Source: Anaerolineae bacterium (lineage in GTDB: Bacteria > Chloroflexota > Anaerolineae > UBA1429). From it: a stretch of 60,202 nucleotides of DNA. A program made the translations under genes and the position numbers. Every line of letters begins with the position of its first letter. The first letter of the stretch is position 1. Under the pieces are notes generated by a model. That model saw nothing but the letters and a program-made list of their open reading frames with translations, did no database searches and was not told where the DNA came from. This document shows positions 6,808-60,202 of the stretch, piece by piece. The DNA lies in NCBI GenBank assembly GCA_007132185.1, contig SLPC01000081.1, forward strand, positions 1-60,202, read 5' to 3'.

Positions 6808-7059
6808 ATGCAGCCAGATAGAGAGGATCATGTATGGCGTTTCGCCGTGCATGCGCAAACAGATACCCCCGTGTATGACGACCCTCTGATAGAGATGGTC
6901 CGAGTGTTCCTGAAGGACTTTTTAGACATGGGTTTTTTCACCTATGAAGGCAAAAAGGTGCAGGTCGATGGCTTTGCCTTTGCTAATAAACCCCAGGAGC
7001 TGTATGCGCTCTTTGAAGAGTCCGGAGACTGCCAGGATGATACCCAGACCATAGCATGA
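6808..7059 (+). CDS. small acidic protein (83 aa), unknown; possible peptide chaperone or substrate
   Basis: ATG preceded by GGAGG at 8-nt spacing. First gene of the co-directional cassette. D/E-rich, with a single Cys, and ends ...DDTQTIA. Confidence 0.55.
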   Translation: MQPDREDHVWRFAVHAQTDTPVYDDPLIEMVRVFLKDFLDMGFFTYEGKKVQVDGFAFANKPQELYALFEESGDCQDDTQTIA

Positions 7060-7124
7060 ATCTGGTGGTGGATTGCTGCCTGTTCCAAGATAAACGCAAC
7101 ATTGAAAAAAAAGGAGTATAGATC

Positions 7125-7415
7125 ATGACAGATGGACCCAGCTTTAGACTGCCATCAAGGCTGACTCTGGTGCGACATGCCGATCTGGCACCCGACAGCA
7201 AGCGTGAGATTGCGGATGCGATCGCGCCCGGGTTGGAGCACCTCGTTACCGCAGCAGGAACAAGACTGTCGGACGAACAGACACAGCAGCTACGGGAGTC
7301 GCTTCGCGATCGCGGCATGATCGAGGTGCCACCTGGCGGTGAGACCATGTCAGCCACCATTTCCGTTTCCGGCTCGTTGAACTATACAAGCAAAGAGAGC
7401 GAGTTGCTTCGGTAA
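7125..7415 (+). CDS. small protein (96 aa), candidate precursor peptide
   Basis: ATG preceded by AAGGAG at 8-nt spacing. It ends 12 nt before the rSAM/SPASM gene. The C-terminal segment PPGGETMSATISVSGSLNYTSKESELLR is Ser/Thr-rich and Cys-free. Confidence 0.55.
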   Translation: MTDGPSFRLPSRLTLVRHADLAPDSKREIADAIAPGLEHLVTAAGTRLSDEQTQQLRESLRDRGMIEVPPGGETMSATISVSGSLNYTSKESELLR

Positions 7416-7427
7416 GAAAGGCGTCAA

Positions 7428-8531
7428 ATGAACAGTGTTGGCGTGCTTGAGGAACAGGCAGCAATCCACCATCAGATCCTTTCTCTGCAATTGAGCTGGA
7501 ACTGCAATGCCGCATGCCGGCATTGCCTGGTTGAGGGCGACATGAGCCACAGCCACGTGATGCCGCTATCGGAAGCCAAGCAGATCCTTAACCAGTTGGA
7601 GCACCTGCCCCTGACCCGTCATGTAGGCTTCTCTGGTGGTGAGGCATTCCTGCACTATGACCTTTTGCTGGACCTTGGCGCTTTTGTCAAACAGAGGTTT
7701 GGCCACTCTATGGGTATTGCGACAAACTGCTTTTGGGCCACCGATCGGGACAGGGCGCATGCTATGCTTTCGCCCCTGGTGGACCTGGGCTTGACCGATC
7801 TGCTCATCAGCCTGGATGACTTTCATCTCGAGTTTGTCGATGCCCGATACATCGAGAATTGCATTCACCAGGCCCTGGCATTGGACATTAACGTCGTGGT
7901 ACAGACGGTCAAGACCAGAACGGGGCATGGATCCCTGTACTTTCAGAAGCATCTGGACATTCCATCACCGCCAGTGGTCACCTGGATGGAAATCCCCTGC
8001 CATCCTGTGGGTCGCGCCCTGGCCGGGGTTCCAGAGAGCGATTATGTGTATGACTGGACAAACCGGCCGGGGTACTGTACAGCGCTGCGCGTATGGAGTG
8101 TGGACCCCTTTGGAGGCGTCACGCCCTGCTGCGGAACGGCCATTGCGCCACCCCTACAGGTGGGCAACGCATTGCAGAAGGGGATGGCCGATATCGTCAA
8201 CCAGGCCAATGTCAACCCGCTGCTGAACACCATCGCCGCTTGGGGCGGGCCCTATATGCTGATCAAGGTGCTCGAACACCAGGGCGATTTCCGCTACTCC
8301 CACAGGGCCTTTGCCAGCCATTGCCATGCCTGCTCCACGATTCTGCGGGATCCCGACGCGATGCGCATCCTGGATCGGGAGCTGCCCGATCATTGGCTGG
8401 ATGCCCTGGCGGCGCGGTTGGCTGCTCATACGCTCTGGTATCGCACCACCGTCCTGCATGATGAGAACAGCCGCTGGCTTCCAGGAGGGTGGCTGCCCGA
8501 AACCAAAGAGCGGGTCGAGGCGCACCTCTAG
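7428..8531 (+). CDS. radical SAM protein with Cys-rich SPASM/twitch-like C-terminal domain
   Basis: CX3CX2C motif (WNCNAACRHC) near the N-terminus. Additional C-terminal cysteines (GYC...TPCCGT...SHCHAC) are consistent with auxiliary Fe-S clusters. Confidence 0.85.
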   Translation: MNSVGVLEEQAAIHHQILSLQLSWNCNAACRHCLVEGDMSHSHVMPLSEAKQILNQLEHLPLTRHVGFSGGEAFLHYDLLLDLGAFVKQRFGHSMGIATNCFWATDRDRAHAMLSPLVDLGLTDLLISLDDFHLEFVDARYIENCIHQALALDINVVVQTVKTRTGHGSLYFQKHLDIPSPPVVTWMEIPCHPVGRALAGVPESDYVYDWTNRPGYCTALRVWSVDPFGGVTPCCGTAIAPPLQVGNALQKGMADIVNQANVNPLLNTIAAWGGPYMLIKVLEHQGDFRYSHRAFASHCHACSTILRDPDAMRILDRELPDHWLDALAARLAAHTLWYRTTVLHDENSRWLPGGWLPETKERVEAHL

Positions 8532-8568: not shown

Positions 8569-10383
8569 ATGACACAAGTCAAAGAAGAGAAAGATGGCAG
8601 CCGTGTGGCCCCCTCTGAGGGCTTTGTGAAGCTCATTCGCCATCAGATCGCTAACCTGCAGCGCATCATCGCGCTGGAGAGCCAGGGGACGCCGGTTGCG
8701 ATCGAGGCTTTTTCCTTCAGACAGCAAATAGGCGAGGCCGTTTGCGCGCAGGAACAGGACGCACCAAGGGTGCTCAGAAAGGATCAGCCCGACCTGCCCG
8801 AAATGTACCGGCAGATCGAACCGCGGCTGCAGATGATCTCGCACCTGCTGGCGCACCTGGGCCGCTGCGGCACCTTTGAGGCCGGGGGACAGCCGGTAAG
8901 CGTCGAGAGCTTTCGCCTCAAGGATCTGGCCTTTTGGGCGCGCTATCCCAGCTCCAATCTGCTGGACAACTTGGGCGAGCTGTCGTCCTGGTGCAGCAGC
9001 GACTGTGTCTTTTGCTTTCTAAAGGGCGCCCCCATGATCGCCTGGCGGCGCCCGATGCTGTCGATACAGGAGGCCAAAACCAGGGCGCGCTACTTTACGC
9101 CAGCCAAGCAGCGCGGCTTGCCCACACCGATGGCGGTGCCGGGCGAGCCCCTGGCGAACCCTGATACTGTCGAGCTGCTTCAGATCGTGCGCGAGACCAA
9201 CCCGGACACGGTCATGGACCTTACCACCAATGGCGATTTTCTGAGCGAGACGCTGGTCGATGCGTTGGCCGCCCTCAAGCCGCTGCACATCTCCCTCTCG
9301 CTAAACTCGTCCAACGCGGAGCGGCGCCGCCGGGTCATGCGGTCGCCCCGGGCTGAGCAGGGCATACGTGCCGCCGAACTGCTGCGGTCGCGGGACATCC
9401 AGTTCACGGGAAGCATCGTCCCTTCGCCCAACGAGCCTCTGGACGATGTGGCCGAGACCATACGCTATCTCGATAGCCATCATCCTATCCAGATCCGACT
9501 GCTGCTGCCAGGCTATACCCGCTACAACGCCGACGCGGTCCAGTTTGATACGCCCATCTTCTGGCAGGCCCTGGTGGACCTGGCCGACCAGATGCGCCCC
9601 GAGCTCTCGTCGCCGGTCTTGATCCAGCCTTCGTTCTATTGGAATAGGACCATCATGGCTTATATCGACGGGATTTTCCCCAACTCACCCGCCGCCCATG
9701 CCGGGCTGCAATTCGGCGATCTTGTTACCAGGGTCAACGAACAGGTCGTGATCAGCCGCGCCGAGGCGGTGCACTTTTTGCAGCAAAAGCCAAGAGACGG
9801 CAGCCCCTGGGCGGTGGATGTCGAGATACAACGAGGAAGAGAGCGGTTCACCGTCACGCTCTCGAACCAGCTCGACCGGGAGGAGGATTTCTATCCCTAC
9901 AAGCCCCAGGGCTATGCTCCCTCCTTTAGCGCCCTGGCCCGTTGGGGCTTTGGCATCCAACTGGCCGACGGCTTTGACATGGGGGCGCTCAAGCGCCTCA
10001 AAGAGATCGTCACAAGACATCCGGAAGCGGAGCGGGTGCTGATCTTTACGACGCCCCTGGTCAGGGATCTGTATGCCCAGGCCCTGCAGATCGTGGGCGA
10101 TTCGCCCGAATGCCGCCTGCCAGACGTCGAGGTGCGCATCACCATGGCCCAGCACAATTTCTGGGGCGGCAATATCATGATCGGCGATCTGCACGTCGTT
10201 CAGGATTATATCGACCAGATCCGGCTCGTGCAGCACTCGGGCTATCACCCCGACCTGGTCCTCATCCCCGGCAGCTTTGCCAACGCCTGGGGACTGGATC
10301 TGTTGGGGCACTCTTATGCCGAGATCGAGCGGCGGACGGGCACTACCGTGGAACTAATCCCTCTGCAGCGTATCATGGTCTAG
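8569..10383 (+). CDS. radical SAM protein with internal PDZ-like domain and DUF512-like C-terminal domain
   Basis: CX3CX2C (WCSSDCVFC) at about residue 150. PDZ-like segment: GIFPNSPAAHAGLQFGDLVTRVNEQVV. The C-terminus (NFWGGNIMIGDLHVVQDYIDQI...LIPGSF) resembles DUF512. Confidence 0.85.
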   Translation: MTQVKEEKDGSRVAPSEGFVKLIRHQIANLQRIIALESQGTPVAIEAFSFRQQIGEAVCAQEQDAPRVLRKDQPDLPEMYRQIEPRLQMISHLLAHLGRCGTFEAGGQPVSVESFRLKDLAFWARYPSSNLLDNLGELSSWCSSDCVFCFLKGAPMIAWRRPMLSIQEAKTRARYFTPAKQRGLPTPMAVPGEPLANPDTVELLQIVRETNPDTVMDLTTNGDFLSETLVDALAALKPLHISLSLNSSNAERRRRVMRSPRAEQGIRAAELLRSRDIQFTGSIVPSPNEPLDDVAETIRYLDSHHPIQIRLLLPGYTRYNADAVQFDTPIFWQALVDLADQMRPELSSPVLIQPSFYWNRTIMAYIDGIFPNSPAAHAGLQFGDLVTRVNEQVVISRAEAVHFLQQKPRDGSPWAVDVEIQRGRERFTVTLSNQLDREEDFYPYKPQGYAPSFSALARWGFGIQLADGFDMGALKRLKEIVTRHPEAERVLIFTTPLVRDLYAQALQIVGDSPECRLPDVEVRITMAQHNFWGGNIMIGDLHVVQDYIDQIRLVQHSGYHPDLVLIPGSFANAWGLDLLGHSYAEIERRTGTTVELIPLQRIMV

Positions 10384-10475
10384 CCATCGCTGGCTGTGGC
10401 GTAGGCATGGCCGGCATCCATTTCGTCGCCCGATCGCCACAACCGCAACGGTAGAACCAGGCCCTCGGCGGCCTT

Positions 10476-10511
10476 GACCGGGGCCCTCCACGATACCGAT
10501 GTGTTCTAACA
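10476..10511 (-). pseudogene. degenerate copy of the panE 5' end (SD + ATG + first ~12 codons)
   Basis: The minus strand reads GGTGAGGAATC ATG TTA GAA CAC ATC GGT ATC GTG GAG GGC CCC GGT (MLEHIGIVEGPG). Intact panE reads MQGRIGIVGAGG. The reading frame decays downstream. Confidence 0.4.
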
Positions 10512-10547
10512 TGATTCCTCACCCTGTCCGATGATGCTGTGGCGCTT

Positions 10548-11441
10548 CTACCGCCAGGGAGCATCGGGGTCAACGGCCTCCCAGGTCACAATCAATTCCC
10601 GATCGCAGGGGCGCCCCTGGACATAGGCCGCATCGAAATCGTACTCGGCGCGCCAGCCCACCTCGTGAAAGAGAGCCACGGTGCGCACCGTGAGGCCCTC
10701 GTCAGTGACCTCGATATCCTTGAACTCGAACGGGCTCTCGGCAAAGCTGCTAGCCATCAGCCAATGCGCCTTACCCAGCGACCCCAGGCTATTGATATGA
10801 CTGTGGCCCGAGAGAATAAGATGCAGGCTGGCATAGGCCTCTGCCAGCTCGGCCAGGGCCTCGGCATACGCAGGCGGCGGGCCATGGGAATCCTCGGCCT
10901 CGCCGGTCTGCTCGGCCGATACCGCCCCGGGGGCGCTGTGGCAACAGAGGAGTTGCGGGATGTGATACCCACCGGCCAGGCGGGCCTCGAGCTCGTCAAG
11001 CTGCTCGGGATAGAGGGCGGCATGCGGCACATCCTCATCCCAGAAATAGGGTCGGTCGCCCCACTGGGTGGGTATTACATGCAGGAGACAGTCGTCCAGG
11101 TCGAGGGTATAGGCAGGCTCGCCCTCGGCAAAGAGATGGCCGCCAAACTTGCGCCACATATCCAGCGCATCCGGGGCGGTGAGATCATGGTTGCCCAGGG
11201 CCAGGTAGAGGGGCACCGAGAGGGTCGCCCAGTCGGCCACGGCCTGCTCGATCACTTCTGCCTCGGCCCACTCGACCATGTCGCCGCCATGCAGCACCAG
11301 GTCGATGTTGCCCCGCTGTCGGATCCACATTTCGAGTGCGTCGATGAGCTGGGGCAACCGCTCGATATAGGACACCTGACGGTGATAGCCCCGTGGCCCG
11401 CCGCCATGATGCGTGTCGCTGAGGTAGATCAGTCGCGTCAT
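10548..11441 (-). CDS. metallophosphoesterase (calcineurin-like)
   Basis: Motifs LSDTHHGG, GGDMVE and GNHD. Start set at ATG 11441 (SD AAGGAG), giving MTRLIYLSDTH. The track ORF extends to 11468. Confidence 0.85.
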   Translation of the reverse strand: MTRLIYLSDTHHGGGPRGYHRQVSYIERLPQLIDALEMWIRQRGNIDLVLHGGDMVEWAEAEVIEQAVADWATLSVPLYLALGNHDLTAPDALDMWRKFGGHLFAEGEPAYTLDLDDCLLHVIPTQWGDRPYFWDEDVPHAALYPEQLDELEARLAGGYHIPQLLCCHSAPGAVSAEQTGEAEDSHGPPPAYAEALAELAEAYASLHLILSGHSHINSLGSLGKAHWLMASSFAESPFEFKDIEVTDEGLTVRTVALFHEVGWRAEYDFDAAYVQGRPCDRELIVTWEAVDPDAPWR

Positions 11442-11542
11442 GCCGCTCCTTGCTGGTCGAGATAGCACGAGTGTAACACGACAAGCGCCACGGAGCCAAC
11501 ATCGAACGCCGGCCCTTTACGGCTGAGATTCGGTTTCGCGGA

Positions 11543-13000
11543 TTACTTGATCGTCATCGGCAACCAGCGCCGAGGATACTCTGGTGGAAAAGGCGTTCTC
11601 GTGGGAGTAGGCATCGGCGTCATCGTAGGAGTAGGCGTCCGTGTCGGGGTGCGGGTTACCGTTGGCGTCATGGTTCGAGTCGGAGTAGGATTGGCCGGCG
11701 CACCTTGCTGGACAGCCCTGTAGACGTTCAGGCGGCCAACCCCGTAGAAAGAGTTCCATCCGGGTGGAACGTCAGCATTATCCATGAGCGCCTGAATCAC
11801 CTGATTCGGTGTGTAATTTGGGCGATAGGACCAGACCAGCCCGGCCGCGGCACTGACCAGAGGCGCAGCCATAGAGGTGCCGCTCGCATAACCGTAGGGA
11901 GGATTCGAGTGCCACGGCGGAAGGGTAGAGAGTATGCTCTCCCCCGGGGCTCCGAGGTTGCCATATTGGCTAAAAGAGGCAGGCCAGTCATTGCTGCTCG
12001 TGGCTGTGATGGCACCCACCCCGGGCAAAGCCGCTGGATACGTCGGATTACCGGGCCCGCCATTGCCTGCCGCTGCTATGATCACAGCTCCTTTGTCCAG
12101 AGCATAGTCAACGGCGCTTGCCTCAAGGCTCGAGTATGAACCGCCCAGACTCAGGTTGATGATCGACTGCTTTCCCAGATGAACAGCCGCATCCGCTGCA
12201 AAGGCAATCCCATTGGCTGAATCAGAGGTGGACCCGCGACCCTCATTATCAAGCACCTTGACATAAAGCGTTGAGCACAACGGGCACAGCCCGCTGATCC
12301 CGATCCCGTTGTTGCCCGCCGCCGTCGCAATGCCCGTCACATGGGTTCCATGACCATTGTCATCCCAGGGATCATTGTCATTGTGGATGAAATCCCACCC
12401 CAGCCATGCGTCTGCAGGGCGATCGGGGTGAAAGTAATCGAATCCGGAATCGACAATCGAGACGAGAACCTGGGTAGAGCCCAGGGTCAAGTTCCATGCG
12501 TGCGGAGCCTGCACTTTGGGCAAGCCCCATTGCAGAGAGTAATAAGGATCGTTGGGAGTAAACGATACTGATCTGTTCCCATCAATCTCGGCATCGATTA
12601 CCTGCGGCAGCGAGGTCAGGGTCTCGAGTTCGGCGCTGGCTATAGAAGCATCCTGACTGCAGACACGCCACCATTGGGGGACCAGCAGGCCTTCGATCTG
12701 CGTGTACCCCTGCTCTTCCAGCAGCTTTCGAAACGCTTCAGAGGAGACATTGTCGGCACGCTTGATAACCAGAGCTACATCACAAGAGATGGCCTCTGGC
12801 CGGTCCCGGACCTCATCGCGATCCTCTTCCAACCTGGCAAGGAACTCGTCAGCATCCAGGGGAGGAGGCAGGCAGATACCGTCGTCACGGCAAAAGAGAT
12901 CGCGATCCTCCTCTGCAGAGAACGATAGAGGCAGGAAAAGACCGGTAAAAAGAACCACCAGACAGAGACAGATCAGCCATCGGGATCTAGGCTTGTTCAC
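11543..13000 (-). CDS. secreted subtilisin-like serine protease (S8) with C-terminal Pro/Thr-rich linker
   Basis: Asp/His/Ser triad motifs VSIVDSGF, GHGTHVTG and SGTSMAAP. Has a signal peptide. GTG start after AAGGAGG. PT-rich tail: PTPTRTMTPTVTRTPTRTPTPTMTPMPTPTRTP. Confidence 0.9.
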   Translation of the reverse strand: MNKPRSRWLICLCLVVLFTGLFLPLSFSAEEDRDLFCRDDGICLPPPLDADEFLARLEEDRDEVRDRPEAISCDVALVIKRADNVSSEAFRKLLEEQGYTQIEGLLVPQWWRVCSQDASIASAELETLTSLPQVIDAEIDGNRSVSFTPNDPYYSLQWGLPKVQAPHAWNLTLGSTQVLVSIVDSGFDYFHPDRPADAWLGWDFIHNDNDPWDDNGHGTHVTGIATAAGNNGIGISGLCPLCSTLYVKVLDNEGRGSTSDSANGIAFAADAAVHLGKQSIINLSLGGSYSSLEASAVDYALDKGAVIIAAAGNGGPGNPTYPAALPGVGAITATSSNDWPASFSQYGNLGAPGESILSTLPPWHSNPPYGYASGTSMAAPLVSAAAGLVWSYRPNYTPNQVIQALMDNADVPPGWNSFYGVGRLNVYRAVQQGAPANPTPTRTMTPTVTRTPTRTPTPTMTPMPTPTRTPFPPEYPRRWLPMTIK

Positions 13001-13135
13001 AACACACGGCCTCCTTATAGTGGATCGTCAGGGCGCCTATTATAAGCGCTCCTGCTGGCCTGTCCAGGGAGTTATGTCAGCACAGAGGCAGGTCGCTGGG
13101 AATGCTGAAGACAGCGCAGAGGGCCATCCCGCTCC

Positions 13136-27385: not shown

Positions 27386-27470
27386 GCCGAGATGGCGGAA
27401 CCGGCAGACGCGCTGCGTTCAGAGCGCAGTGGATATTAGATCCGTGAGGGTTCAAATCCCTCTCTCGGCA
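27386..27470 (+). tRNA. tRNA-Leu (anticodon CAG), class II with long variable arm, CCA not encoded
   Basis: Acceptor GCCGAGA/TCTCGGC, anticodon stem-loop CTGCG-TTCAGAG-CGCAG, variable arm TGGATATTAGATCCGT, T arm GAGGG-TTCAAAT-CCCTC, discriminator A. Confidence 0.9.
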
Positions 27471-30824: not shown

Positions 30825-31063
30825 GGGATCGCCTGCCCGAGTTTGCGATTGTCTATTGAATGAGGATTCCAATGTATCTTTCTTTGCTACGCTTGCTCGT
30901 TGAAATCTCGCAGCAGAGCCCACTGCTCTATATCGGGCTGATCGTGATCTTGATGGCCTCCTGGGGCCTGATCGTTGCGGCCATCACCGAAATCGCGATC
31001 AAGCTGTTCGATATCCGCGACATGGTCTGATCCAAGGCGACACAGCTTGATCGCGCCTGCCCG

Positions 31064-32095: not shown

Positions 32096-32159
32096 TGTTA
32101 TCTCCTGTCGAGTGGATCCCAGGTCAACTCCCAAGAATTGTGCTAACGGCCCCAAATAG

Positions 32160-32190
32160 AAAAAAAGGGGAGCTCATATTGAGCCCCCCT
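32160..32190 (-). terminator. intrinsic terminator after the selenoprotein gene
   Basis: Minus strand: AGGGGGGCTC-AATAT-GAGCTCCCCT followed by TTTTTTT (plus-strand A run 32160-32166). Confidence 0.6.
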
Positions 32191-32206
32191 TTGCGCTCAG
32201 ATAAGC

Positions 32207-32446
32207 CTAGAGCTTTTTACCAATGTCCTCAACCACGGCAGTCTCACTGGGAAACCGCCCTGTTTCGAGTTTGGAGTAGATCTGCTCTTCGTCCACCTTG
32301 ATCTCGAATGCGCCTCCCCCTGAAGGGAGGAGTGCAAGCTCGGACACCTGGTTCTTGAACTTGTCGAGGATGAGCTGCGCCAGACTGGCGGCTCGAGGAA
32401 GGTAGCCTCAAGCAGTGCAATACTGAATCGAAACTTTACTACTCAT
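32207..32446 (-). CDS. SelW/SelT/SelH (Rdx) family selenoprotein with in-frame UGA (Sec) in a CxxU motif
   Basis: Not in the ORF track. Hand translation: MSSKVSIQYCTA-U-GYLPRAASLAQLILDKFKNQVSELALLPSGGGAFEIKVDEEQIYSKLETGRFPSETAVVEDIGKKL-stop. TGA is codon 13 (32408-32410). SD AAGGAG is 7 nt before the ATG. 240 nt in total. Confidence 0.8.
32372..32394 (-). other. candidate bacterial SECIS-like hairpin
   Basis: The minus-strand RNA GAGC-CGCCA-GUC-UGGCG-(CA bulge)-GCUC starts 13 nt after the UGA. The apical loop contains G and U. Confidence 0.4.
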
Positions 32447-32484: not shown

Positions 32485-32514
32485 ATTATAGCTCATTGTC
32501 AGGGGACGAGGCAA
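32485..32514 (-). promoter_or_regulatory. putative promoter of the selenoprotein gene
   Basis: Minus strand: TTGCCT, 18-nt spacer, TATAAT (plus coordinates 32509-32514 and 32485-32490). Confidence 0.4.
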
Positions 32515-39534: not shown

Positions 39535-40893
39535 CTAGAAATCGACCTGGGGCAGATGCGTCAACGACTCCCGGATCTTTTCCTCAGGGTAGGCATAGTC
39601 TTCAAGATCGCCTGCCATATATGCATCATAGGACGACAGGTCCAGATAGCCGTGGCCACTCAGCTCGAACAGGATCACCCGCTCCTCTTGCTTTTCCTTG
39701 GCATCCAGCGCCTCATCGATGGCGGCACGGATGGCATGGGCTGATTCGGGCGCCGGGATGATGCCCTCGCTGCGGGCAAACTGTGCCGCCGCCTCAAACA
39801 CCGGGATCTGGTAATAGGCGATGGACTCGACCAGCTTGTGCTCGTGCAAGAGTGCCAGGATGGGCGCCACACCGTGGTAGCGGAGGCCACCAGCGTGGAT
39901 GCCAGCCGGCACAAAGTCGTGCCCGAGAGTGTTCATCTTGACCACTGGCGCCATCTTGGCCGTGTCACCATAGTCAAAGGCATAGGGCCCCTTGGTCAGG
40001 GTGGGGCAGGCCATGGGCTCGACACCCACCAGGCGCGTCTTGGTGCCATCCCGCAGATTGCGCTGCAGATAGGGCAGCGCAATCCCGGCAAAGTTCGAGC
40101 CGCCGCCGACGCAGCCGATCACGACGTCCGGCTCAAAGCCGGCTATCTCCATCTGTTTGATCGTTTCCTGGCCAATCACTGTCTGGTGCAGCAGCACATG
40201 GTTCAGCACGCTGCCCAACGAGTACTTGGTATCCTCATTGAGCATGGCCACTTCGACGGCCTCGCTGATAGCGATGCCGAGGCTTCCGGGCGAATCGGGA
40301 TCCTGTGCCAGGATGCTGCGGCCCGACTCGGTCTCTTCACTGGGGCTGGGCGTCACCTCACCACCAAAGATACGGATGATCGAGCGACGGCCCGGCTTTT
40401 GGTGATAGCTGACCTTGACCATGTACACTTTGCATTGCAGATCGAAAAAATTGCACGCCATGGCCAAGGCCGAGCCCCACTGGCCTGCGCCCGTTTCGGT
40501 AGAGAGTCGCTTGACACCTGCCTGCTTGTTATAGTAGGCCTGCGCCACGGCCGTATTGGGCTTGTGGCTGCCCACAGGGCTCGTGCCCTCATACTTGTAA
40601 AAGATCTTGGCTGGCGTACCAAGGGCCTTTTCCAGGCGCACGGCGCGCAACAAGGGTGTGGGACGCCAGAGCTGCAGGATATCGCGCACTTCGGCGGGGA
40701 TGTCGATGTAGCGATCCTGGCTCACCTCCTGCAGGATCAACTCCATGGGAAAGATGGGCGCCAGATCATCCGGCCCCACCGGCTGCAGGGTCTTTGGATG
40801 GAGCGTGGGCGGAAGCGGCTCTGGCAGATCGGGAATGACATTGTACCACTGGGTCGGCAGGTCGTTCTGGCTGAGTAGATACTGGCTCTCCAT
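39535..40893 (-). CDS. trpB2: TrpB-like PLP enzyme (tryptophan synthase beta chain 2)
   Basis: 452 aa. N-terminus [29 protein letters not shown] is characteristic of TrpB2, with a PLP-Lys region. SD AAAGGAGAGG. Confidence 0.9.
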
Positions 40894-40984: not shown

Positions 40985-41313
40985 AAAAAAAGGCCCCGTC
41001 CCCTGAGGGACGAGAGCCTTGCTCCCGCGGTACCACCCTACTTGGCCTGGCCCAGAAACGACAAAATCCGCCGTGATGGCGGATAACCTGTGCCAGCCCC
41101 ACTCTTGCAGATACAGGGCCCGATCTCGCATCGATCAGGTCCGATATCCTCTGCCCTGATAACGGTGGCGACTCCGGCTTTGTCTACTCGCCATGCTTTC
41201 GACAAAGCGACTCCCGGGCCCATTCCCTGTCTGCGCCGATGCCGGGCTCACACCTCTTCCCGGCTCTCTGTATCTCGCCTTGGCAGGTACTCTTCCCGAT
41301 CCAAGTCTTTACG
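40985..41313 (-). promoter_or_regulatory. T-box riboswitch leader, Trp specifier (UGG), with terminator/antiterminator
   Basis: Minus strand carries GGGAAGAGUA (GA/AGUA motif), CAGAGAG, GGUGUGAG, and a specifier GAA-UGG-G (plus 41220-41222). The T-box sequence AGGGUGGUACCGCGGGAG is at plus 41026-41038. The terminator stem is at 40992-41018, followed by U7. Confidence 0.85.
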
Positions 41314-55410: not shown

Positions 55411-56331
55411 CTACCGTTGGCTGTTGCCCTCGTCCTCGGGCATCTCGCGCAAGAGACCCGTCAGCACGGCACGTCGCCGCCGGAGCTGGCCCTTGCGGTC
55501 ATACTCGCGCACCACGGCCTCGTAGGCCACCAGCTTGTCCAGCGCCTTGTTCCACGCCCCCGACTCGATGGGGGTGTGCAGGATGTTGGTACGCTGCACG
55601 GTGATGGCGCCCTCGGCGGGGCAGATGTGCTCGCAGGCGCCGCAAAAAACGCAAAAGCGCTCATCGACGCTCACCTGCTGACCATCATAGCTGATGGTCT
55701 TGGTGGGGCAGATGTCGGCACAGGCCTGGCAGCCCTCGGGGCAGAGGGATACATCCAGGCGCACATGGCCCTGGTAGGGCCTGGTGATGGTAAAGGCGCC
55801 CTTGGGCCCCAGCTCCATGCAGCGAGTGCAGGCAATGCACAGCTCGCGATCCACCTCCACATTGCTCACCGCCGTCACCTGACCCGCGTCATCCGTCGCC
55901 AGCTCGGCGCTGATGGCACCCACGGGGCAGTTGTCGATATAGCTCGTATCGGTGGACGCTGCAGCAGCGTCCTGATCGATCTTGACGTTGCGCAGCAGGT
56001 AGGGAAACGCCTTGCCCGAGATCACCGGAATCTCGGGCTTGCCGTCGATGGTCATCGACAGGGCATGGGCGGGGCAGACCACGACGCACTCGCCGCACAT
56101 GCTGCATGTGGCCGGGTCAATGTCGATGCGGGGCTGGACGGTCATGCGGCCGTCCACCAGCTGGCCCTCACTGAGGGAGATCGACTCGTGGGGGCACACC
56201 AGGCTGCAGATCTCACAGCCACAGCAGGCCTCGTGATCCACGACCAGCGCGCTGCGGCGCAGCACCATGGGGCGCAGCAGAGTCTGGTTTTGCGGGGTAT
56301 CGGTCTTGATGATGCGGCCACGTGTGGTCAT
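55411..56331 (-). CDS. polyferredoxin (MvhB-like, multiple 4Fe-4S motifs)
   Basis: Several CxxCxxCxxxCP motifs (CCGCEICSLVCP, CSMCGECVVVCP, CIACTRC, CQACADICP, CVFCGACEHICP). It starts 3 nt after the large-subunit stop. Confidence 0.8.
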   Translation of the reverse strand: MTTRGRIIKTDTPQNQTLLRPMVLRRSALVVDHEACCGCEICSLVCPHESISLSEGQLVDGRMTVQPRIDIDPATCSMCGECVVVCPAHALSMTIDGKPEIPVISGKAFPYLLRNVKIDQDAAAASTDTSYIDNCPVGAISAELATDDAGQVTAVSNVEVDRELCIACTRCMELGPKGAFTITRPYQGHVRLDVSLCPEGCQACADICPTKTISYDGQQVSVDERFCVFCGACEHICPAEGAITVQRTNILHTPIESGAWNKALDKLVAYEAVVREYDRKGQLRRRRAVLTGLLREMPEDEGNSQR

Positions 56332-56334
56332 GTT

Positions 56335-57819
56335 CTAACCCTCGCCTCCCGCAGATGGATCTCGTCGCAGTTGGGCCAACAGCTCGCCTGACGGATCGTA
56401 CACAGAGACCTCCAGGTCCATCTCGCCCGGGGCCGCGTGGGTGGCGCAGCCAAAGCAGGGATCATAGGCCCGGAACGCCATCTCGACCCGATCCAGCAGC
56501 CCCTGGGTGATCTCTTTGCCGCCGCCGATCAGCGTCTGGGCCGCCTTTTTGATCGACATGCAGATGGCCGCATGGTTGTTGGTGGTGCCCACGATCAGGT
56601 TCACCCTGGTCAGAAGGCCCTGCTCGTCGGTAACATAGTGATGAGTGAGCAGGCCACGCGGCGCCTCCACGATGCCCACGCCCTCGCGGGGCGTCTCGGT
56701 GGGAATGACGCGGATGTTGGGATCGGTCAGCGCCTCGTCGCGCGCCAGCTCGAGCACGCGTTCGCCGGCATAAAGCATCTCGATCAGGCGCGCCCAGTGG
56801 GTCGCCAGAGTGGCGTGCACCGGCTTGGCCCCCATATAGGCATAGAACTCCTCATAGGCCTCCTGGGCCAGGGGCGTCGCCAGCCCCTCGCTCACATTCA
56901 GGCGCGACAGGGGGGTGGAGCGATAGACGCCGCTCTCCATGCCGTCGGTGAGCCCCTGCCAGCCAAAGTGCTTGAGGTAGGGGAACTTGACATAGGTCCA
57001 CGGTTCGACCCGCTCGGCCACGTGCTCCAGGTACTCGTGGGGCGGATAGCAGGCGACCTCGTTGCCCTCGACATCGACGATGCGCACCTTGCCATCATAA
57101 AAGTTGAGCTGCTTGTTGGCATCCACCAGCCCGATGCTATGGGTGCGGTGCAGATAGGCGTCACCCATAATCATGTCGCGGAATTCGTCATTGCCCAGCA
57201 CCAGATCGCGCCACAACTCGAGGCTGAACTGGCCAAACTCGACCATGCTCTCGCCGATCTCGATCAGGCGCCGCTGCATCTCGGGCGTCACAGCCTTGGC
57301 GACGCCCCCGGGCAGCCCCATGACGGGGTGCACAAAGCGGCCGCCCAGCATCGAGAGCACCTCGTGGGTCTCGGACAGGTGGCGCAGCACGCGCTGTCCC
57401 AACCGCACGCCCAGCTTGTTGACGATGCCCAGGATATTACGCTGCGCCGGGTCAGTATCCGGCCCCAGGATGAAATCGGGCCCTGAGAGCACGAAAAAGT
57501 GAGTGGCGTGGTCGCCCGAGACAAAGGCATCATATGCCAGCTCGCGGATCCGATGGGCGTTAGGGGGCGGCTCGACGCCATAGACCGCGTCGGCGGCCTT
57601 GGTCGCCGCCATATGGTGGGCCATGGGGCATACGCCGCAGATTCGCTGGGTGATGCGGGCCATTTCCTCTACCGGGCGCCCCTCGCAAAAGCTCTCGAAC
57701 CCACGAAACTCGGGCACCTGAAAGTAGGCGTTGGCCACATCGCCCTGGTCATCCATGAATATCGTGATCTTCCCGTGCCCCTCCAAGCGGGTGACAGGAT
57801 CGATGGTTATGCGTTTCAC
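56335..57819 (-). CDS. [NiFe]-hydrogenase large subunit (Mvh/group 3-like)
   Basis: N-terminal RLEGHG...RICGVCPMAHH and C-terminal DPCFGCATH Ni-binding motifs. The GTG start overlaps the small-subunit TGA (GTGA). The track ORF has a spurious 93-codon extension. Confidence 0.9.
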   Translation of the reverse strand: MKRITIDPVTRLEGHGKITIFMDDQGDVANAYFQVPEFRGFESFCEGRPVEEMARITQRICGVCPMAHHMAATKAADAVYGVEPPPNAHRIRELAYDAFVSGDHATHFFVLSGPDFILGPDTDPAQRNILGIVNKLGVRLGQRVLRHLSETHEVLSMLGGRFVHPVMGLPGGVAKAVTPEMQRRLIEIGESMVEFGQFSLELWRDLVLGNDEFRDMIMGDAYLHRTHSIGLVDANKQLNFYDGKVRIVDVEGNEVACYPPHEYLEHVAERVEPWTYVKFPYLKHFGWQGLTDGMESGVYRSTPLSRLNVSEGLATPLAQEAYEEFYAYMGAKPVHATLATHWARLIEMLYAGERVLELARDEALTDPNIRVIPTETPREGVGIVEAPRGLLTHHYVTDEQGLLTRVNLIVGTTNNHAAICMSIKKAAQTLIGGGKEITQGLLDRVEMAFRAYDPCFGCATHAAPGEMDLEVSVYDPSGELLAQLRRDPSAGGEG

Positions 57820-58832
57820 GATGCGTCTTCTCCGTTCCGCTGCGAGTCGCAGACCTGGCCAGACTCGGCGAGGCCCATCTTGATCTGGTGCAAGACCGAG
57901 GCCCCGAGGCTGAACCGATACAGGGTACCCACGGGGTCGACGATCGTCGAAAGCACCTGCCGGATGTCGGCATCGCTCTCGCCCTCGAAACCAGCCACAA
58001 TGGCATCCAACATGGCGGCCCCCTGATCGACCACGCCGGCGGGCGGCCCATAGCAGCCCCGGCAGGGCATCTCGGCATGGATGCACAGCGCGCCGCAACC
58101 GGCATGGGTGGCAGGCCCGGCACAGATCAGGCCCTGCTCCAGGAAGCAGATCTCTGGATCAGGTATGATCTCGTGGGGCCGTACAAAGCGGTCCACGCGG
58201 ATCTTGCCCTCCCGCTCGCGCGGGCACTGGTCGCACACGGTGCGATCGTCCACACCCAGCAGGCTCCCCACCTCGGGCAGCTTGTTCTCGATAACGGCCG
58301 TCATCGCCTTCCAGATCTGGTCGTGGTGGGGCGGGCACCCGGGGATCGAATACTCGACGGGCACTACCTGCGACAGGGTGCGGAGCTGCTTGGAGAGCAC
58401 AGGCAGCGTCAGATCGCCTTCGGGCATGGCAAAGTGCCCCTGCTGCAGGACCTGAGCGCCGTTATCGACAGAGGGCGATGTCCAGGCGGCACCTTGCAGC
58501 GCATGGTCAGGGCCCTTGATATTGCTCAGTCCGGGGATGCAACCCTCCATGGCGCATGAGCCAAAGGCCACCAGCACTTTGGTCTTGGTCCGGAGCAGGT
58601 GCGCAATATGGGCGTCCTCGTCGGTGCGGATGCCGCCGTTGAAAAGGGTCACGTCGATATGCTTGTCGGGCATGGCCTCGACATCGGTGTACTTGAAATC
58701 CATGGCGGCGGGCCAAAAGACAATGTCCGCCACCTGGGCCAGCTCCAGCAGGCGCTCGCCCAGCTCGACGATGGCAATGTCGCAACCGCCGCAGCTCGAG
58801 GCCCAGTATACGGCCAGTTTCAGCTTCTCCAT
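57816..58832 (-). CDS. [NiFe]-hydrogenase small subunit (MvhG-like)
   Basis: MEKLKLAVYWASSCGGCDIAIVE... proximal-cluster Cys pattern, with further Cys clusters (GCPPH, CAGPATHAGCGALC, CRGC). SD GAGGAAAG. Confidence 0.85.
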   Translation of the reverse strand: MEKLKLAVYWASSCGGCDIAIVELGERLLELAQVADIVFWPAAMDFKYTDVEAMPDKHIDVTLFNGGIRTDEDAHIAHLLRTKTKVLVAFGSCAMEGCIPGLSNIKGPDHALQGAAWTSPSVDNGAQVLQQGHFAMPEGDLTLPVLSKQLRTLSQVVPVEYSIPGCPPHHDQIWKAMTAVIENKLPEVGSLLGVDDRTVCDQCPREREGKIRVDRFVRPHEIIPDPEICFLEQGLICAGPATHAGCGALCIHAEMPCRGCYGPPAGVVDQGAAMLDAIVAGFEGESDADIRQVLSTIVDPVGTLYRFSLGASVLHQIKMGLAESGQVCDSQRNGEDAS

Positions 58833-58841
58833 ATCTTTCCT

Positions 58842-59864
58842 CTATGCCCCATCCGCCGCAGAAAACATGGCGGGAGCCGCCGCCGTCGAGGCCGTCACGA
58901 TCTCGTTTGCCATCTGGTCGAGGAGCGCCGGCAGCGCGCTACGGGTCAGCGCCCCCAGCTCTACGAAACGCACCCGACCGGGATGGATGCTCATCTGGTT
59001 CAGCACCGTATCCAGCAGGGCGACCTTGCCGCGCCCCAGGTAGGTCCCCCGCTTGTAGTGGCACTCGCCCTCGTGGCAGCCCGCCACCAGCACGCCGTCG
59101 GCGCCCTGGGAGAGGGCCAGCAGGATCATGGCCGGGTCCACACGGCCCGAGCAGGGCAGGTTGACCAGGTGCAGCCGCTCGCTCTCCAAGGCCTCCAGGG
59201 CGGCCCACTCGGCGTCAGAGCGAATGCTCCACTGGCACACAAAGGCCAGGATGCGCGGCGCATCGGCAGCACCTTGCAGGTAGCCCGGCTGCTCCAGCCA
59301 GCCCCCGGAGCCCATGCGCGACAGGATCTCTTGATCGTTGAACTCTTCCAGGCTCATGGCCCCCGACGGACAGGCCGCCACGCACACGCCACAGTGCATG
59401 CACAGGTTCTTGTCCACCTGAGCGATTACGCGCTCATCGCCGTTGACCATCACGGGCCCGCGGGCCAGCGCCTCGTAGGGGCAGGAACGGGTGCACACAG
59501 CGCAACCGGAGCAGATAACCTCGTCCACGGAGGCAAAGGGGCCCGGCGGCTCGTATCCCTCGCGGATGGCGATGGTCCGTATGGCTTGCATCACCTCCGA
59601 GATATGGATCTCCTTGGGGCAGCGCGGGTAACAGGCATCACAGGCAGAGCACTGCCAGATCTCGCGGCTGGAGAGCACCGCCTCGCGCAGGCCCAGACCC
59701 GCCTTGCGCAGGATCAGCCGCGGGTTGAACGCGGGATCAAAGCGGCGCACCAGACAGGTGGCTGCGCAGGTGCCGCACGACCAGCAGTCGAGCAGATGCT
59801 CGCCGCCGGGCTCGGCCATGACATCTTGCACGAAATTGCCGTCAAACTCGCCGGAACGGATCAT
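58842..59864 (-). CDS. fusion protein: HdrC-like 4Fe-4S domain + ferredoxin dicluster + MvhD domain
   Basis: CWSCGTCAATC...CSACDACYPRCP (HdrC-like), CSGCAVCTRSCP and CMHCGVCVAACP (ferredoxin), LPCSGRVD...GCHEGECHY (MvhD). The ATG overlaps the upstream TGA (ATGA). The track ORF extends to 60083. Confidence 0.8.
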   Translation of the reverse strand: MIRSGEFDGNFVQDVMAEPGGEHLLDCWSCGTCAATCLVRRFDPAFNPRLILRKAGLGLREAVLSSREIWQCSACDACYPRCPKEIHISEVMQAIRTIAIREGYEPPGPFASVDEVICSGCAVCTRSCPYEALARGPVMVNGDERVIAQVDKNLCMHCGVCVAACPSGAMSLEEFNDQEILSRMGSGGWLEQPGYLQGAADAPRILAFVCQWSIRSDAEWAALEALESERLHLVNLPCSGRVDPAMILLALSQGADGVLVAGCHEGECHYKRGTYLGRGKVALLDTVLNQMSIHPGRVRFVELGALTRSALPALLDQMANEIVTASTAAAPAMFSAADGA

Positions 59865-60202
59865 GATGCGGGCACCCCCTCTTCCGAGGCCACCGCCGGC
59901 TCTATGTCGGCCAACAGGTCGATCATCTGCGGCGAGTTCTTCCAGCGCTGCAGGCGCCGCTCGATGGTAGGCCGCGCCTCGCGGTTCTCTGCCAGAATCT
60001 GCTCGCGCGGGATCGACTTGAGCGTCTCGTTCATCTCGGTGATCACGCGGGCGTACTTTTCGCCCTCGGCGGCCGAGATCCACTCGACCCGGAAGCGCTC
60101 GCGGCTGATGCCCATGCGCTCGAGCTGGGTGGCCAGGCGCTCAAAGCGCTTGGCAGCCACCTGCTGGCCGGTGATATAGTGGCAGTCCTGCGGATGGCAA
60201 CC
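59861..60202 (-). CDS. MvhD-domain (hydrogenase Fe-S delta subunit-like) protein, 5' end outside window
   Basis: The frame is open to the right edge. Hand translation from the edge: GCHPQDCHYITGQQVAAKRFERLATQLERMGISRERFRVEWISAAEGEKYA... Confidence 0.7.
   Translation of the reverse strand, partial: GCHPQDCHYITGQQVAAKRFERLATQLERMGISRERFRVEWISAAEGEKYARVITEMNETLKSIPREQILAENREARPTIERRLQRWKNSPQMIDLLADIEPAVASEEGVPAS

Follow-up and report, generated by a model that had tools for sequence, protein, structure and literature searches.

An unannotated SelW-like (Rdx) gene with a conserved in-frame TGA in an uncultured soda-lake Anaerolineae population

A complete Rdx frame interrupted by TGA

Does a minus-strand frame that is interrupted by a TGA at its thirteenth codon encode a selenoprotein, or is it a decayed gene or a shorter ORF read too far upstream? 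The question was raised by an earlier note on the window (the whole 60,202-nt stretch of DNA that was analysed), which had proposed an 80-codon frame with a Shine-Dalgarno (SD) sequence, an ATG, an in-frame TGA and a TAG at 32207, a stem-loop 13 nt past the TGA and a strong terminator. The frame was found exactly there, on the minus strand at 32446..32207, and reads MSSKVSIQYCTA-TGA-GYLPRAASLAQLILDKFKNQVSELALLPSGGGAFEIKVDEEQIYSKLETGRFPSETAVVEDIGKKL-TAG. The stem-loop and the terminator were located as well, and the features of the locus are as follows.

32485..32514, minus strand: sigma-70-like promoter, TTGCCT-18 nt-TATAAT (10/12 matches); the TATAAT box is kept 5' of the gene in the relatives L003 and L005
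32453..32458, minus strand: SD sequence AAGGAG, 6 nt 5' of the ATG; SD and ATG are kept in the relatives L003, L005, L008 and L010
32207..32446, minus strand: complete coding sequence of the predicted SelW-like (Rdx) selenoprotein, 80 codons (79 residues, with Sec13, and the TAG)
32446-32444, minus strand: ATG start of the Rdx gene
32408..32419, minus strand: CxxU redox motif TGC-ACT-GCT-TGA (Cys10-Thr-Ala-Sec13), aligned with the CxxC of 3DEX and 2FA8
32419-32417, minus strand: Cys10 codon
32410-32408, minus strand: TGA, codon 13 of the Rdx gene and its predicted Sec codon
32372..32394, minus strand: SECIS-like hairpin, 9-bp stem (GAGC+CGCCA / UGGCG+GCUC) with a CA bulge on the 3' side
32390-32378, minus strand: conserved core of the hairpin
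32385-32383, minus strand: apical loop of the hairpin, GUC
32209-32207, minus strand: TAG stop of the Rdx gene
32164..32192, minus strand: intrinsic terminator, with a T-run behind its 13-bp G+C-rich stem; it begins 15 nt past the stop and is present in L003 too

A locus comparison showed the identical architecture in the orthologues of the gene. The gene had been described as unlisted and as missed by stop-to-stop ORF callers, and this proved true of both source assemblies: neither gene table contains it, and nothing is called between the S30AE and homoserine-dehydrogenase genes. The mechanical ORF list has solely a 46-aa GTG fragment at the locus. Gene callers missed the gene because its presumed Sec codon, TGA, looks like a stop. 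The same region is carried by contigs SKPO01000296.1 and SKPO01000119.1 of the MAG GCA_007119475.1 and by an ENA metagenome contig (exact-protein match). The nearest species-representative genome is that of Anaerolineae bacterium CSSed162cmA_480 (SKRJ01), a MAG from soda-lake sediment with 91% protein identity; the G+C content of the window is 61.8%.

HMM searches were run with the TGA read as Cys, that is, with a protein of 79 residues. The Pfam family Rdx (PF10262) matched residues 4-75 of 79 with E=1.3e-24 and 86.6 bits (cutoff 22.6), and the NCBIfam model of the SelT/SelW/SelH family (TIGR02174) scored 79.9 bits (cutoff 34.2). Judged by these profiles, the Rdx match is far beyond chance and membership of the family, which the earlier note had assigned as Rdx/SelW-T-H, is established. 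Both matches cross the TGA, and homology therefore spans it. The score for the SelTWH_Campy equivalog (NF041051) stayed below its cutoff (84.5 vs 88 bits), so that the protein is filed under the broader subfamily and not under the narrow equivalog.

The bacterial Rdx structures 3DEX (SAV_2001), 2FA8 (Atu0228), 2OBK, 2OKA, 2OJL and 2P0G and the human MIEN1 structure 2LJK aligned over residues 3-73. Their CxxC falls on Cys10..TGA13 (3DEX and 2FA8 read CTQC), and the CxxU/CxxC near the N-terminus that characterizes the family is present as C10-T-A-U13. The comparison with Cys-containing homologues thus gave alignment on both sides of the TGA; alignment downstream only, which had been named as a sign of a pseudogene or a shorter ORF, was not observed. 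Homology to the solved structures (E=4e-16) points to a thioredoxin-like fold for the window protein. The Cys-containing bacterial structures (E from 4e-16 to 3e-9) have the GG.FE core in common with it, but they carry Cys for Sec, are ~25 residues longer and read RAAW(L/M)AQ where the window clade has RAA/VSLA, a segment that encodes the SECIS loop. Mammalian SELENOW (CxxU) and MIEN1 (CxxC, E=2.8e-8 for 2LJK) belong to the same Rdx fold family and have the motif at the corresponding place. Sec insertion in eukaryotes relies on a SECIS in the 3'-UTR, together with SBP2 and eEFSec. The element of the window gene, by contrast, is part of the coding sequence and follows directly on the UGA.

Bacterial SelW-like CxxU selenoproteins were reportedly described by Zhang & Gladyshev in 2005-2008. 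The window protein is like them in its HMM families (PF10262/TIGR02174), N-terminal CxxU and size (~80 aa), and in its gene, as in theirs, the UGA is directly followed by a SECIS hairpin whose small apical loop holds a G. The family is well established among bacterial selenoproteins (PMC1088965, PMC1794560, PMC13188914). With 48 genes it was the most abundant selenoprotein family of the Sargasso Sea data (PMC1088965), and a 2026 review lists it among the prokaryotic selenoproteins "predicted with high confidence" (PMC13188914). Its Sec forms are many and its Cys forms few (PMC1794560, PMC1088965), which matches the close relatives of the window gene; Cys homologues are scarce in Sec-using organisms, and Sec has been suggested to be the original state (PMC1794560). 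Nothing essential sets the window copy apart; its source is an uncultured Anaerolineae population of a soda lake, in which it had remained unannotated. The window gene is a real but ordinary addition to the long-known SelW-like (Rdx) family. Since both family and mechanism are textbook matter, its value is one of annotation only: one correctly delimited selenoprotein gene is gained for this population.

Conservation of the TGA and of the hairpin

The protein-database search with the Rdx query returned mostly fragments of 44-64 aa, corresponding to the C-terminal 53-82% of the query. These entries, which restart past the TGA, are a gene-calling artefact and not biology. We have read several relatives upstream of their short calls, namely L003 (a syntenic Anaerolineales genome), L005-L008 (JGI contigs) and L009 (a planctomycete-like contig), and all of them had the SD sequence, the ATG, the N-terminal strand in conserved form and, within CxxU, an in-frame TGA. 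The "full-length" database homologue P0008 (L094, 198-440) has Trp at the Sec position. The DNA reads TGA there, and the Trp arose in annotation, when a TGA=Trp table was applied to a short contig.

A species scan with one genome per species (GTDB) gave 80 Rdx loci from about ten phyla, drawn from Chloroflexota/Anaerolineae, Planctomycetota, Verrucomicrobiota, Acidobacteriota, Eisenbacteria, Methylomirabilota, Sumerlaeota, Bacillales, Peptococcaceae and Actinomarina. The homologous codon was TGA in 79 of these 80 species-representative loci, as it was in all of L001-L009 and in every other relative retrieved, the metagenomic ones included. The sole Cys form among the 80 genomes (TGC, in CSGC) was that of L074, a Thermomicrobiales MAG with the Rdx gene around 1991-2179. 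The in-frame UGA is thus aligned with Cys both in L074 and in the CxxC proteins of the PDB, with homology on both sides of it. The 80-genome comparison also shows how systematically automatic annotation truncates or drops the SelW-like family.

Substitution patterns were compared among five Anaerolineae orthologues, for which pS was about 0.26-0.8, with synonymous divergence rising to about 0.5-0.8, and which retain both the TGA and the hairpin. The pN/pS ratio was 0.32 over the 11 codons before the TGA and 0.25 over the 60 codons past it. By this measure, purifying selection acts on the codons 5' of the TGA as well as on those 3' of it. The low values on either side show the frame to be a single coding sequence, unbroken at the TGA and long maintained.

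Folded alone, the hairpin at 32394..32372 (GAGC-CGCCA-GUC-UGGCG-(CA)-GCUC) had an energy of -11.9 kcal/mol (z=-2.18), and 7 of 200 shuffled sequences were as stable. Its conservation was evaluated in an alignment (A2) of 77 distinct sequences that extends from TGA-3 to TGA+45 and contains no indels. RNAalifold independently predicted the hairpin at columns 24-28/32-36 of this alignment. In a 6-bp version of the hairpin, 94.6% of the cells were standard pairs, compared with 24-49% when the 3' arm was slid by 1-3 nt. Compensatory changes were present in three of the six pairs (for instance C-G to A-U, G-C or U-A), and the observed covariation score was reached by none of 500 column shuffles. Pair 26:34 was U-G in 42 sequences, U-A in 22 and C-G in 13, the C-A mismatch never occurring. 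In the apical loop, the first base was an invariant G and the second was nearly always U. Hence, the hairpin for which a SECIS function had been proposed is conserved throughout the family, with covariation in its stem.

The hairpin encodes A-[A/V]-S-L-[A/T], and protein constraint therefore also contributes to its conservation. The Cys form of L074, a single control (n=1) for RNA-level versus protein-level constraint, keeps a weakened 4-bp remnant of the hairpin (GCCGCCAGUCUGGCC), suggestive of a recent Sec-to-Cys conversion. No Rfam SECIS family matched the hairpin, even at E<=10, the scan giving noise matches on the terminator only. The bacterial SECIS models of Rfam are narrow and lineage-specific, which makes this miss weak negative evidence.

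In bacterial SECIS elements, the hairpin follows directly on the UGA and has a small, G-containing apical loop (PMC1088965); both properties were found in the window hairpin. Like the SECIS of E. coli fdhF, it is located in the ORF just 3' of the UGA and combines a small G-U apical loop with a bulged stem (PMC8659212). The two differ in spacing (13 nt from the UGA in the window vs 11 for the upper stem-loop of fdhF), in the position of the loop G-U (+26/+27 vs +23/+24, that is, G23/U24, the U of UGA being 1) and in the bulge, which is a 2-nt CA on the 3' side in the window and a bulged U17 on the 5' side in fdhF (PMC8659212).

Folding of the whole region favoured a different structure, an 8-bp hairpin that includes the UGA (CUUGAGG/CCUCGAG, 32395-32415, minus strand, z=0.16). 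We have rejected it as a functional element because its pairing is not conserved in L003. In the window, it competes with the base of the SECIS stem.

Sec machinery and the decoding of the UGA

Scans of the 60-kb window with ARAGORN, Rfam and Pfam (the latter on the long ORFs), its gene table and tblastn with related SelA/SelB/SelD revealed no selA, selB, selD or tRNA-Sec, and none of these genes was found within 10 kb of the Rdx gene in any of ~32 Chloroflexota loci. The Sec-decoding trait and tRNA-Sec have been reported for Chloroflexi (PMC1794560, PMC5322559, PMC5389517). An unusual 8/4 tRNA-Sec has also been reported in this phylum. Together with these reports, the long retention of the TGA and the hairpin in the lineage is strong, if indirect, evidence that the source organism decodes UGA as Sec and probably possesses selA, selB, selC and selD.

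Further indirect support comes from other phyla, in which linkage to the Sec machinery was observed. ARAGORN detected a tRNA-Sec in the fetched flanks of the Rdx gene in 29 of the 80 loci, usually within about 1 kb, and tblastn placed selD near the gene in 24 loci and selA and selB in 22 loci each. The identities of selD, selA and selB were confirmed by TIGR00476, TIGR00474 and TIGR00475, all above their cutoffs. In 22 Verrucomicrobiota and Bacillales loci, the Rdx gene stands beside tRNA-Sec, selD, selA and selB. The typical order in Verrucomicrobiota is Rdx(U)-tRNA-Sec-selD-selA-selB, as in L037 (Rdx(U) 6914-7147, tRNA-Sec 7255-7351, selD 7535-8467, selA 8607-10046, selB 11114-13072) and in about 20 more loci (L035, L047, L055, L059, L061-L067, L073, L077, L080, L082-L085, L087 and L089), with the tRNA-Sec typically 40-750 nt past the Rdx stop codon. 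The Bacillales locus L029 (Aquibacillus halophilus NZ_WJNG01000002.1, 4635-12447) comprises selD(-), a glycosyltransferase gene(-), tRNA-Sec(-), selB(+), Rdx(U)(+) and selA(+), the Rdx gene beginning 52 nt past selB; L049 is similar. In Planctomycetota, the Rdx gene directly precedes selD.

The tight linkage of the Rdx clade to tRNA-Sec, selD, selA and selB in Verrucomicrobiota, Bacillales and Planctomycetota is the sole mildly new point of this analysis. We have found no mention of linkage between Rdx, tRNA-Sec and sel genes in the selenoprotein literature cited here. At the planctomycete-like locus L009, the selD that adjoins the Rdx gene (10401-11390) has an in-frame TGA of its own (DYASCAG-TGA-AGKLPP) and was cut short to 288 aa by the gene caller, so that two selenoprotein genes lie side by side.

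Could the UGA be translated as something other than Sec? A tRNA-Sec-like tRNA-Cys(UCA) (selC*) might decode it as Cys, or near-cognate read-through stimulated by the hairpin might insert Trp or Cys. The selC* type of tRNA-Cys opal suppressor exists in some anaerobes, but the reports of it concern Firmicutes, Thermodesulfobacteria, Nitrospirae and Proteobacteria and do not include Chloroflexi (PMC5389517). In the relative P0008, the TGA was indeed taken for Trp by one gene caller; that residue, however, is the product of the TGA=Trp table noted above. Furthermore, TGA is the stop of 10 of the 45 long ORFs of the window, including the neighbouring homoserine-dehydrogenase gene. It is thus an ordinary stop elsewhere in the window, which is indicative of the standard genetic code and not of genome-wide recoding. 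In other phyla, moreover, the clade is physically linked to a genuine tRNA-Sec and to selA, selB and selD. Given the normal use of TGA as a stop and the taxonomic range reported for selC*, we regard decoding as Cys or Trp as very unlikely.

Less credible still is a pseudogene, in which an ordinary CxxC Rdx gene would have lost its Cys codon (TGC/TGT) by mutation to TGA and the frame would be decaying. TGC and TGA are a single base apart, no gene is called at the locus in either source assembly and the window showed no Sec machinery. Conservation of the same TGA across about ten phyla nevertheless effectively refutes decay, and the conserved SD, ATG and N-terminal codons with their low pN/pS, the covarying hairpin downstream and the intact promoter and terminator all argue against it. 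The reading in which a shorter ORF is the real gene (46 aa from GTG 32347, or about 58 aa from a CTG/TTG), with a 5' leader or a 12-codon mini-ORF upstream, agrees with the GTG fragment of the ORF list and with the 44-64-aa products of relatives in databases but is hardly tenable, as the product would be without the family-defining beta-strand 1 and CxxC/U active site, the Pfam match begins at residue 4, no SD precedes the internal starts, start positions vary among relatives (L/M at different residues) and the codons upstream evolve as coding sequence behind a conserved SD and ATG.

Proposed function, and other features of the window

The locus is very probably a monocistronic gene for a 79-residue Rdx/SelW-like selenoprotein, a putative thiol/selenol oxidoreductase whose UGA13 would be read as Sec by means of a SelB-bound hairpin. 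Transcription would most likely start from the gene's own promoter and give a monocistronic mRNA of about 320 nt, as estimated from the -10 box (32490-32485) and the end of the T-run near 32154. Translation would begin at the ATG at 32446. When UGA13 reaches the A site, the hairpin, 13-35 nt past the UGA and thus at the mRNA entrance, would tether SelB-GTP-Sec-tRNA(Sec), its small G-U apical loop being bound by SelB, the Sec-specific elongation factor that carries Sec-tRNA(Sec). SelB would then bring Sec to the ribosome, competing there with release factor 2.

The product would be a small protein of thioredoxin fold with a Cys10/Sec13 redox pair, most likely a thiol/selenol-based oxidoreductase that cycles between a selenenylsulfide (Cys10-Sec13) and a reduced form. 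This role is suggested by what is known of the family, that is, by the CxxU motif and by the reported interaction of SelW with glutathione (PMC1088965). From the sequence evidence, then, we infer Sec insertion in the source organism, the binding of SelB to the hairpin, and a redox function of the product.

The linkage of the Rdx clade to the sel locus in other phyla hints at a role in selenium metabolism. The clade, recognizable by IYSKLETGRFP and with Sec in 79 of 80 species, might be a dedicated component or sensor of selenium metabolism or a regulator of sel genes and not a generic redox protein, an idea that we consider speculative and rather improbable. If it were true, the Rdx protein could pass selenide or perselenide to SelD or, alternatively, the Rdx UGA could gauge the supply of Sec-tRNA during translation and tie the expression of downstream sel genes to it. 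The window's Anaerolineae copy would in that case belong to this selenium-metabolism system as a dispersed member.

The genes around the Rdx gene form a conserved block with homoserine dehydrogenase, mutY, fumarase and SBP genes, and the upstream side varies, with S30AE in the window and a Cpn60-family gene in L003. Between the homoserine-dehydrogenase gene and mutY lies a hydrophobic ORF of 52-56 aa (30860-31030, plus strand), which has no Pfam match and is called and syntenic in L001, L002 and L003. A tRNA-Leu(CAG) gene (27386-27470, plus strand), some 5 kb away from the Rdx gene, has syntenic counterparts in several Anaerolineales genomes (L011, L012, L015). Farther away, a T-box leader (41003-41312, minus strand; Rfam RF00230, 109 bits) precedes a gene for a 452-aa pyridoxal-phosphate enzyme of the PALP family (39535-40893, minus strand).

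We have found no second selenoprotein gene in the window with a heuristic TGA scan, an insensitive procedure that missed the Rdx gene too and whose 16 candidates all resembled antisense ORFs or adjacent gene pairs. The end of the window is occupied by an Mvh-type [NiFe] hydrogenase cluster (55411-60083, minus strand), composed of the following genes.

58842-60083, minus strand: MvhD/HdrC-like gene
57816-58832, minus strand: [NiFe] hydrogenase small subunit
about 56335-57819, minus strand: [NiFe] hydrogenase large subunit, with C-terminal DPCFGCATH
55411-56331, minus strand: poly-ferredoxin

All of these genes have Cys at the positions where some organisms have Sec.
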